From NCBI GenBank assembly GCA_963793425.1, contig CAWCAG010000005.1, positions 1,312,001-1,376,000 on the forward strand: a DNA stretch of 64,000 nucleotides. Direction: 5' to 3'. This DNA comes from an uncultured cyanobacterium (GTDB lineage Bacteria > Cyanobacteriota > Cyanobacteriia > Cyanobacteriales > CAWCAG01). The number at the start of each line of letters is the position of its first letter. The stretch's first letter is position 1. A model generated the notes under the pieces. It saw only the letters and a program-made list of their open reading frames with translations. It did not search any database and was not told the DNA's origin. Shown in pieces: positions 692-1,542 of the stretch. The position numbers and the translations under genes were made by a program.

Positions 692-1542
692 GAACAATCG
701 GGCCTCTTGGGGGAAACCCTAAGTAGTGAATGCGGTCAAATTCAAGGAAGCCTAAGTCTGGTCAAACAGAGAGGGTAATCTTGAGCCAAGCTTATAATTT
801 GTCGATTCGGCAAGTTATTAAGAAGGTGCAGAGACTGGTTGAATGAGAGCTAAAAATGATGGACTATAATGTCTCATCAAAAGTAGAGCAAAGAGGCATT
901 CTGACCGGGATGTTATTAGGTGCAAGTAGGAGGAATAAACAAAATTTCTACCTCCAACACCTGAATTTGCCAGAGGAATATGTTTTGTTTAAAAAGCAAC
1001 TCCTTGAACAAATCATTCGCAAGCCAGTTAGTCTTCGGGAAGAGAAAAGTAGTAAAGGCGAACCCTTGATACGTTTAGAACCAAAGTTGATTCCTTTAAC
1101 TAGGGTTTTGGTTAAGAGGCTTTATCAAGGAACAACACCTATAATTACAAGTAAGTTCCTGCGTTTTTTAACCCCCCCAGGTATAGCAATTTGGTTTATG
1201 GATAAAGGTTCTAAATCTTTTAAGAAGAAGAACGGCAAGATCCATAGCCTAGAAGTTAACTTCAATACCAATATCTGCCAAGCAGAAAATGAATTGATAG
1301 TAGCTTATTTTGCTGAAGTTTGGGGTTTTAAGTGGGGATTAAGCAAAAGTGGAAAGGCTTACCGTTTAAGGATGGGAACGAAAGAAGGTAAAAGATTTTT
1401 TGATTTTCTTCGTCCCTATATCCATCCCGCTATGCTCTACAAAATAGAAACCTCTTGTCAACATAACGGCCGCCACCTAAAAGAGCTTTTGCTCTGATGG
1501 TGAAGGGATAGTCCAGAGAGTAAGGAAACTTACACAAATCTG
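692..1542 (+). ncRNA. Group I self-splicing intron (IC3-like, bacterial tRNA type), 851 nt
   Basis: 5' exon ends in U and intron ends in G. P1 689-693/698-702 with U691.G700; P2 with GAAA loop 706-723; P3 GCGGTC 732-737 / GGCCGC 1468-1473; P4 TTCAAG/CTTGAG; R element GCAGAGACT 828-836; P8 1474-1502; S element AAGGGATAGTCC 1503-1514; P9 GTAAG-GAAA-CTTAC. Confidence 0.95.
856..1497 (+). CDS. Intron-encoded two-motif LAGLIDADG (LAGLIDADG_2 / I-SceI-like) homing endonuclease or maturase; active sites degenerate
   Basis: Motifs ILTGMLLGAS and LTPPGIAIWFMDKG; C-terminal LRPYIHPAMLYKI typical of the family; very basic protein; lies inside the intron. Confidence 0.85.
   Translation: MMDYNVSSKVEQRGILTGMLLGASRRNKQNFYLQHLNLPEEYVLFKKQLLEQIIRKPVSLREEKSSKGEPLIRLEPKLIPLTRVLVKRLYQGTTPIITSKFLRFLTPPGIAIWFMDKGSKSFKKKNGKIHSLEVNFNTNICQAENELIVAYFAEVWGFKWGLSKSGKAYRLRMGTKEGKRFFDFLRPYIHPAMLYKIETSCQHNGRHLKELLL

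Follow-up and report, generated by a model that had tools for sequence, protein, structure and literature searches.

A LAGLIDADG open reading frame overlapping the core of a cyanobacterial tRNA-Arg(CCU) group I intron

How can a ribozyme accommodate a gene whose 3' end runs through its own catalytic core, and why is that gene preserved when its product lacks the residues on which DNA cleavage depends? Both questions are raised by a stretch of 64,000 nucleotides from an uncultured cyanobacterium (contig CAWCAG010000005.1, positions 1,312,001 to 1,376,000; the whole stretch is referred to below as the window, and its own coordinates are used). Here positions 655 to 1579 constitute the only tRNA-Arg(CCU) gene of the genome, split after the anticodon by a group I intron (692 to 1542; 851 nucleotides (nt); Rfam, ARAGORN). 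The intron carries an open reading frame (ORF) at 856 to 1497. Gene, intron and ORF all lie on the plus strand. An earlier note on this DNA had placed the ORF between helices P7 and P3', where intron ORFs are seldom found, and this placement is confirmed from the sequence.

A conserved protein without canonical catalytic residues

By sequence and predicted fold, the ORF product (213 amino acids; Pfam, HMMER, AF2, Foldseek) is a monomeric I-SceI-like double LAGLIDADG protein. Its residues 13-181 match positions 1-168 of the Pfam profile LAGLIDADG_2 (PF03161, 168 positions) with an E-value of 3e-29 and 102.5 bits, the cut-off being 25, and the nearest solved relatives by sequence are I-WcaI and I-SceI. 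An AlphaFold (AF2) model based on 56 homologues (predicted local distance difference test, pLDDT, 90.4) displays helices at residues 9-21 and 107-117, each followed by strands. The predicted fold consists of two alpha-beta-beta-alpha-beta-beta-alpha halves with one LAGLIDADG helix in each. Foldseek aligns it with I-WcaI and I-SceI at template modelling (TM) scores of 0.75 and 0.74, respectively; bI3 maturase and WhiA, which has a LAGLIDADG fold, are among the weaker matches (PDB entries 2ab5 and 1p8k were listed).

The acidic residue (D/E) at the end of each LAGLIDADG helix is absent from the window protein. Motif 1, LLGDG in relatives, reads GMLLGAS in the window and places A23 at the catalytic position; in motif 2 (WFMDKGS), HMMER aligns K117 with D145 of I-SceI. 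Among 29 intact sequences, comprising the window and 28 relatives (the frameshifted L029 was left out), acidic residues are found at both positions in 8, at one in 7 and at neither in 14. The corresponding numbers for 121 family proteins are 34, 19 and 68, with lysine in 38 and arginine in 20 of them at the motif 2 position.

The window protein belongs to a large, deep and old clade that lacks both catalytic residues and is under purifying selection. A protein tree was constructed without the two catalytic columns and rooted at its midpoint. On the window's side, 63 of 64 rows lack both acidic residues, and of the 57 rows on the other side 34 have both, 18 have one and 5 have neither. Over 184 codons, the ratio of nonsynonymous to synonymous divergence (dN/dS) has a rough median of 0.136 in 238 usable pairs. 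The median is 0.148 where both partners lack the acidic residues (46 pairs) and 0.136 where both have them (28 pairs); the window and its relative L003 differ by a dN of 0.062 and a dS of 0.384. Reading frames are preserved as well, 33 of 34 ORFs outside the window being uninterrupted. The sole disrupted one, that of L029 (G067), has a frameshift in a run of A at codons ~120-126, in the conserved KSFKKK segment.

An active homing endonuclease in a currently mobile intron would suit several of these observations: the fold and the Pfam match are of homing endonuclease type, the 34 family members mentioned above keep both acidic residues, and the intron occurs in only part of the order, as expected of a spreading element. 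The Asp residues equivalent to A23 and K117 are, however, essential in I-SceI, and the four nearest relatives of the window protein also have A or G at the first position and K at the second. Present mobility is thus highly improbable, and we infer from the sequence that the window protein no longer cuts DNA.

If cleavage is lost, the gene might be a dying one, a neutral relic of fixation in terms of the Goddard-Burt cycle, with no present function. Catalytic residues have indeed been lost repeatedly, since no fewer than 10 changes at motif 1 and 13 at motif 2 are required by the tree. The ORF of L029 is frameshifted, six of 34 have ATA in place of the canonical ATG, and ORF-less forms exist, of which L039 keeps ORF-end sequences. 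A relic is difficult to reconcile with a dN/dS of ~0.15 in proteins without both residues, the same as in those keeping them, with 33 of 34 frames intact over ~200 codons at up to saturated synonymous divergence, or with the size and deep branching of the clade that lacks the acidic residues. We consider it improbable, if somewhat less so than an active enzyme. Because the dN/dS values and intact frames are unlike those of a decaying selfish gene, the protein is most likely kept for a role that requires no canonical cleavage.

Among such roles, that of a maturase, helping its own intron to fold, appears most likely by analogy and is our leading guess. It is indirectly supported by purifying selection in the absence of catalytic residues and by the loss, in ORF-bearing introns, of a complementarity between two loops of the ribozyme (L6 and L7.1), described in the next section.

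The P7.1-like hairpin as insertion site

P7 and P3' are 631 nt apart in the window. The insert had been proposed to be closed by pairing of GTTGA (838-842) with TCAAC (1458-1462); these segments do close it, as part of a longer stem than proposed. Positions 838-841 and 843-849 pair with 1452-1462 to give 11 base pairs (bp), with A842 bulged. The 5' strand of this P7.1-like stem (838 to 849; covariation, Duplexfold) includes GAGAG (845-849), a sequence resembling a Shine-Dalgarno (SD) element. The 3' strand, CUCUUGUCAAC (1452 to 1462; alignment, Duplexfold), also encodes T199-Q202 of the protein and contains an inserted, frame-shifting base, G1457.

Structure was scored on an alignment of the window with 29 ORF-bearing relatives (30 sequences). 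The closing stem is 93.2% paired in it and three of its seven pairs are changed on both sides, so that it covaries among homologues, which the earlier note had suggested as a check. One pair, for example, is U-A in 18 sequences and G-C in 9; another is A-U in 13, U-A in 9 and G-C in 4. Duplexfold predicts 9-11 or more bp in each of the 30 ORF-bearing introns, with a mean free energy of -12.9 kcal/mol and a mean z of -2.7 relative to shuffled sequences.

The hairpin also occurs without the ORF. Twenty ORF-less relatives were inspected, all of them forms of the same tRNA-Arg intron, 242-275 nt in length. Every one has a hairpin of ~30-60 nt between P7 and P3', with a closing stem of the GUUGUAG/CUACAAC type. 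RNAalifold, applied to these 20 sequences independently of our own assignment, predicts the same stem with 9 bp and compensatory changes, beside P1-P6, P8 and P9. The ORF sits in the loop of a P7.1-like element that is found in the intron lineage with or without an ORF; the ORF-less relatives have the same covarying stem. The earlier description of a newly formed insertion site is not supported, as all 20 ORF-less relatives possess the hairpin and the ORF-bearing form is old and widespread.

Conversely, the hairpin of ORF-less introns could be what remained after deletion of the ORF, which would then have invaded a short joining segment (J7/3) and brought the stem along. At least some ORF-less forms are deletions, because L039 retains sequences from both ends of the ORF, that is, the flanks of its start and end. 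On the core tree, four ORF-less introns (L039, L043, L050 and L051) are placed among ORF-bearing ones, loop lengths of ORF-less forms vary widely, and to our knowledge Azoarcus-type IC3 introns have no such hairpin. This tree requires five changes of ORF state; it is poorly resolved, however, its strongly supported branches forcing only one change, and the direction of change is unreadable. Moreover, the P7.1-like loop of 19 of the 20 ORF-less introns contains 5-8 nt complementary to the P6 loop, and the two stretches change together (ACCCC/GGGGU, UUCCUG/CAGGAA, UCCCU/AGGGA, UAAUC/GAUUA), which suggests a working RNA element. An origin of the hairpin by ORF deletion is rather unlikely.

The complementary stretches are located in columns 145-158 and 187-235 of the ORF-less alignment A2 (L032-L050). 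With loops defined from the fold, the loop-loop complementarity of ORF-less introns has a mean z of -2.3 and 14 of 20 are below -1.5; in ORF-bearing introns, tested over the first 40 nt inside the stem, the mean z is -0.2 and one of 30 is below -1.5. The sequences are suggestive of a kissing-loop tertiary contact between the P6 loop and the P7.1-like loop, which is not seen in ORF-bearing introns. They are likewise suggestive, short of proof, of an exchange: an RNA-RNA contact lost on insertion of the ORF, and its part taken by the protein.

Translation of the ORF and folding of the ribozyme

The distal part of the closing stem is a purine-rich SD-like run (GAGAG, AAGGA, GGGAG or AAGGAG) situated 6-13 nt before the start codon; in the window, GAGAG (845-849) lies 6 nt upstream of the ATG at 856. 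Its pairing partner, a CCUCC-like or CUCU stretch, is found ~600 nt downstream, where the ORF ends. Because the stem holds the SD-like run that precedes the start codon, folding and translation should exclude each other. Because the partner of the run lies so far downstream in the same stem, ribosomes would load only on nascent or unfolded RNA, the start site being open in these states alone. A ribosome ending the ORF would cover P7.1', P3' and P8 and so block the core, and the folded core would in turn close the start site. By analogy with the T4 td intron and its I-TevI gene, we infer that translation and catalytic folding exclude each other on one molecule. The earlier note had argued that translation through P3' and P8 excludes folding; the idea is reasonable, and the position of the SD-like run strengthens it. 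ORF-core overlap, sequestration of the ribosome-binding site and interference of ribosomes with splicing are all described for other introns in the retrieved passages of PMC3073962, where Gibb and Edgell (2010) are cited for impaired splicing of td when ribosomes occupy core sequences.

The six relatives with ATA in place of ATG are L006, L022, L024, L025 and L027 (columns 303-305 of alignment A1) and L056. Their upstream codons and the 18 codons that follow stay conserved, which suggests non-AUG initiation or reduced translation. A search for an internal promoter gave a single sigma-70-like match at 843-870, with its -10 box downstream of the ATG; shuffled sequences gave 2.0 on average, so the match is at chance level.

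The opposite end of the ORF is shaped by the core. As noted earlier, the C-terminus is encoded by P3' and P8: the protein ends with HNGRHLKELLL, of which G205-R206 lie in P3' and H207-L213 in P8, and the stop codon TGA (1495-1497) is in the 3' strand of P8. This tail is atypical of the family. The usual C-terminus, ...TS(Y/L/S)NxTATT, is encoded jointly by the stem's 3' strand, J7.1/3, P3' and P8. The ORFs of 24 of 29 relatives end at the TAA of a conserved CCACCTAA or CCATCTAA in the 5' strand of P8 (in RNA terms, at the UAA of CCACCUAA). In the window the same TAA, at 1478-1480, is out of frame.

The unusual tail results from a 1-nt frameshift shared by the window and L003, a relative from the same genus. 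Both have one extra base in each strand of the stem, U844 (extra in comparison with 27 of 29 relatives) and G1457, and the two bases are able to pair with each other. In the window, G1457 shifts the frame, replaces the last 12 residues and lengthens the ORF by 17 nt, so that it terminates at the P8 TGA. L019 has a separate extra base in the stem's 3' strand, with a similar effect. In L003 and L019 the frame remains open as far as a TGA straddling the 3' splice site; that of L030 ends within the 3' strand of P8 and that of L006 ends early, and at least five stop positions occur among the 29 relatives. Tails comprise 12-34 residues after a conserved tyrosine (tail types listed for 121 proteins). 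Residues 203-213 of the window protein have a pLDDT below 50 in the AF2 model and are predicted to be disordered.

Variable, dispensable extension of an ORF into the ribozyme core has been termed "core creep" (Edgell, Chalamcharla and Belfort 2011, PMC3073962, in the sections retrieved). Since the length of the extension described here differs from homologue to homologue and the predicted fold does without it, sequences and model identify the overlap as core creep, with a tail dictated by the RNA and not by the needs of the protein. Table 1 of that article, as far as retrieved, lists other ORF-core overlaps, two cyanobacterial introns among them, and the same arrangement is drawn in Figure 2b of Hausner et al. 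2014 (PMC3984707, also retrieved in part).

The best explanation of the whole, which we regard as probable, combines the anatomy of the intron, core creep, mutual exclusion of translation and splicing, and a protein that lost catalysis and was kept for another role. Several points speak against it. The division of the protein tree into a side without acidic residues and a side mostly with both has a Shimodaira-Hasegawa-like approximate likelihood ratio (SH-aLRT) of 87, which is not strong, and its root is only a midpoint. Synonymous divergence is near saturation in many pairs (median dS 2.2), hence the roughness of the dN/dS ratios. The maturase role rests on exclusion and analogy, purifying selection fitting a DNA-binding or other role equally well, and a non-canonical catalytic mechanism is conceivable for the window protein on the evidence presented here. 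As to the RNA, duplexes between loops of one intron have a mean of -8.8 kcal/mol and those between loops of different types -6.7, a modest gap, and the loop test of ORF-bearing introns was limited to the 40 nt stated above. The closing-stem duplex of the window itself, at -10.8 kcal/mol, has a z of just -1.3 relative to shuffled sequences. All five pairs of P7 are invariant in the 30 sequences, which is conservation without covariation. In the window the SD-like run is weak (GAGAG), and among relatives its distance from the start varies in the range given above; many cyanobacterial genes need no SD sequence at all.

A more specific proposal can be made, and we offer it tentatively, as a possibility only: the family might represent bacterial group I intron maturases. 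On this view, the arrival of the ORF in the P7.1-like loop would have abolished the contact of this loop with P6, by which ribozymes without an ORF are stabilised, and folding would from then on have required the intron's own protein. Loss of the DNA-cutting residues would have followed early in one deep clade, whose proteins would have been retained ever since. Synthesis of the protein would pass through one gate per transcript: the SD-like run would stay accessible only until its CCUCC-like partner has been transcribed and the last ribosome has left it. If this proposal is true, the sole supply of tRNA-Arg(CCU) in many filamentous cyanobacteria depends on translating an intron-encoded protein.

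Host gene, ribozyme core, distribution and related systems

With introns allowed, ARAGORN reports tRNA-Arg(cct) at 655-1579, split after tRNA position 37 by an intron of 851 nt, i(38,851). The 5' exon (655 to 691) comprises the acceptor strand, the D arm and the 5' part of the anticodon stem and loop up to the anticodon CCU (689-691), and the 3' exon, assigned by ARAGORN and locus comparison, extends from 1543 to 1579. Exon sequences are near-identical across all 51 loci. Default ARAGORN does not call the tRNA-Arg(CCU) gene of the window, and no second Arg(cct) is present among the 50 tRNA genes that ARAGORN finds in the genome. The gene for tRNA-Leu(UAA), the classic host of a cyanobacterial group I intron, is called uninterrupted in this genome.

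The intron is assigned to the classical "Arg.5Ug" type by its insertion point, by U691 preceding the 5' splice site and by its terminal G1542 (omega-G). Its core presumably resembles that of the Azoarcus IC3 intron. In the window it matches the Rfam model RF00028 with 53.2 bits (gathering score 50), and four ORF-less relatives score 51.6-67 bits. In the whole-genome search it falls to 47.7 bits, under the cut-off, because the model cannot span the ORF; it is the sole Rfam group I match in the 5.28-Mb genome. Arg.5Ug is one of four classical types of bacterial tRNA introns, all filed under IC3 (Williams 2020, bioRxiv 10.1101/2020.01.27.920355).

Individual helices of the core were assigned as follows. 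P1 (689 to 702; RNAalifold) is formed by CCU|GA (689-693) and UCGGG (698-702) and contains the U691-G700 wobble pair of the splice site; RNAalifold predicts it in all 20 ORF-less relatives, with which the window sequence is identical there. The P2 hairpin (706 to 723; alignment covariation) is capped by a GAAA tetraloop (713-716); six of its seven pairs are changed on both sides among the 30 ORF-bearing sequences, in which its GGAAAC loop is invariant. The 5' strand of P3, GCGGUC (732 to 737; covariation), pairs with P3', GGCCGC (1468 to 1473; covariation), which doubles as the codons of G205-R206. P3 is 100% paired in 30 of 30 sequences, with compensatory changes in two of six pairs. The P4-P5-P6 domain (741 to 827) was delimited from the Rfam alignment, RNAalifold on relatives and reading by hand. 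In P7 (831 to 836; conservation), G831 and G833-U836 pair with P7', AGUCC (1510 to 1514; alignment), and A832 is bulged. The P8 hairpin (1474 to 1502; alignment) contains an internal loop CCUAA...GAUGG resembling a tetraloop receptor; its outer pairs are 100% paired in the 30 sequences, with one compensatory pair. We take the CCUAA...UAUGG arrangement in P8 to be the tetraloop-receptor motif of Azoarcus-type introns. P9 (1520 to 1533) is a hairpin with a GAAA tetraloop, 98% paired and with three compensatory pairs. The structure as a whole is 96.1% paired; shuffled alignments average 88.2% (0 of 500 as high) and slid registers reach at most 41.9%. All segments named in the earlier note lie where it had placed them: GACT at 833-836, both strands GTTGA and TCAAC of the closing stem, and GGCCGC at 1468-1473, complementary to GCGGTC at 732-737.

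An alternative P3' immediately after P7, which the earlier note had named as grounds for refutation, was considered and rejected. The candidate, GGUUGA (837-842), offers four conserved, mostly G-U pairs and no compensatory change, and its outer two positions are unpaired in 17 and 20 of 30 sequences. The first four of these nucleotides, GGUU (837-840), are invariant in 50 of 50 sequences and could pair weakly, mainly through G-U, with the P3 5' strand; they may hold the place of P3' transiently, until transcription has reached the real one 630 nt further on.

The Rfam alignment of the window positions P3', P8 and P7' within the ORF, at 900-1006, draws P9 into the ORF as well and gives the intron as 679-1006. 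We reject this threading as an artefact because ORF-less relatives align with the true 3' core and the true P3' covaries; in the alignments shown for two ORF-less relatives, P7 is followed by the insert and then by the true P3', P8 and P7'. Since Rfam mis-threads the 3' core and plain ARAGORN misses the gene, automatic pipelines will conclude that tRNA-Arg(CCU) is lacking and annotate the ORF as a free-standing "DNA endonuclease".

Distribution was examined in a sample of 401 genomes of the window's order, of which 354 gave matches in a DNA search. Full-length ones (E<1e-80) occur in 58 genomes, the window's included (counted by hand), and four further genomes with weaker E-values proved ORF-bearing on inspection, which raises the number to at least 62 of 401. 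In ~140 genomes (hand count; 20 inspected), two short matches are found 50-80 nt apart, with E-values of 1e-20 to 1e-47. All 34 related ORF loci inspected lie in the same tRNA-Arg intron. Two relatives, L052 and L053 (G103 and G083), have an extra segment of ~15 residues near the protein N-terminus; their P8 is diverged and their ORFs run to its end. In a phylum-wide protein search, strong matches were confined to the window's order (6 of 401 genomes including the window's, one copy each), and two additional weak matches (29-32% identity) are other LAGLIDADG genes. Public records yielded 157 clusters at E<=1e-5, named "LAGLIDADG DNA endonuclease family" or "DNA endonuclease". Family members are found in Coleofasciculus, Oscillatoria, Lyngbya, Symploca, Laspinema, Phormidium and others.

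Classical bacterial tRNA introns are exemplified by those of Agrobacterium and Azoarcus. With the classical Arg.5Ug IC3 introns the window intron shares the gene and the insertion point after the anticodon, the U-1/G wobble in P1, the omega-G and a compact P2-P9 core with GAAA loops on P2 and P9. It differs in that the cyanobacterial lineage has the P7.1-like hairpin, which in the window holds a 642-nt ORF. P7.1/P7.2 of subgroup IA introns, such as that of phage Twort, are also peripheral helices between P7 and P3' according to the part of PMC1995217 retrieved; the window core is IC3-like, however, and the candidate partner of its hairpin is the P6 loop.

Parallels to the overlap of ORF and core are available in several introns, as far as the accessible passages of PMC3073962 and PMC1995217 go. 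In T4 td, the 3' end of the I-TevI ORF also supplies nucleotides of core helices, the ribosome-binding site is sequestered and ribosomes on the core impair splicing. The td enzyme is of the GIY-YIG family, however, its ORF is in the P6 loop with a 20-nt overlap (P6a, P6.0 and P7), and its host gene is translated (PMC3073962). The window has a LAGLIDADG ORF in the P7.1-like loop, a 46-nt overlap (P7.1', the joining segment, P3' and P8) and a tRNA host, and the partner that sequesters its SD-like run is at the far end of the ORF. Two cyanobacterial introns overlap similarly: the tRNA-fMet intron of Synechocystis PCC 6803 with I-Ssp6803I, by 61 nt in P1/P2 (PMC3073962), and the large-subunit rDNA intron of Synechococcus lividus with a LAGLIDADG ORF, by 81 nt in P6/P7/P3/P8/P9 (PMC3073962; PMC1995217). 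Unlike the window, they have a PD-(D/E)XK enzyme or an rRNA host, and their ORFs are in P1 or P8.

At the protein level, I-SceI and I-WcaI (PDB 1r7m and 6x1j) share PF03161 and the monomeric two-motif fold with the window protein (TM 0.74-0.75, 20-22% identity), which has Ala and Lys in place of their two catalytic Asp. Both enzymes reside in mitochondrial rRNA introns. Yeast bI3 maturase, I-AniI and the protein of a Thermotoga neapolitana 23S intron are LAGLIDADG proteins kept for splicing, some without DNA cleavage, according to the passages retrieved from a review (PMC3984707); the Thermotoga protein is the one bacterial maturase case named there. In contrast to these maturases, the role of the window protein is predicted, its fold similarity to bI3 is weak (TM 0.54) and its host is a bacterial tRNA intron.

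In kind the element is known: core-overlapping ORFs of endonuclease type are on record from other group I introns. Full-text search gave no report of a LAGLIDADG ORF within tRNA-Arg(CCU) introns of cyanobacteria; subscription journals are mostly outside its reach and a prior mention is possible. Three reports retrieved by the search concern other elements: "group I introns" of 22-49 nt in other cyanobacterial tRNAs (PMC5733544), an unrelated HNH gene (PMC8421152) and introns of tRNA-Arg-TCT, a different tRNA, in Thiomargarita (PMC4853749). The passages found in PMC11835236 and PMC8450103 do not mention an intron of the window's type. In searchable papers, four features look undescribed: the position of the ORF within the P7.1-like loop of a tRNA intron of classical type, the structural UAA of P8 used as stop codon, the SD-like run within the closing stem and, above all, the large clade of catalytically disabled yet selected proteins.

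Group I introns with endonucleases, ORF-core overlap and LAGLIDADG-derived maturases are all known, work on maturases being nearly all organellar. A single tRNA gene here provides a natural series of ORF-less introns, proteins with both Asp residues and a large, selected clade that has lost them. The series makes testable both the domestication of a selfish endonuclease and the way in which translation is reconciled with ribozyme folding on one RNA.

The tRNA gene is flanked by two further frames on the minus strand. Upstream lies an ORF of 200 amino acids (5-607 of the window), and downstream, at ~1900-2400, an open frame that by eye appears P-type ATPase-like.

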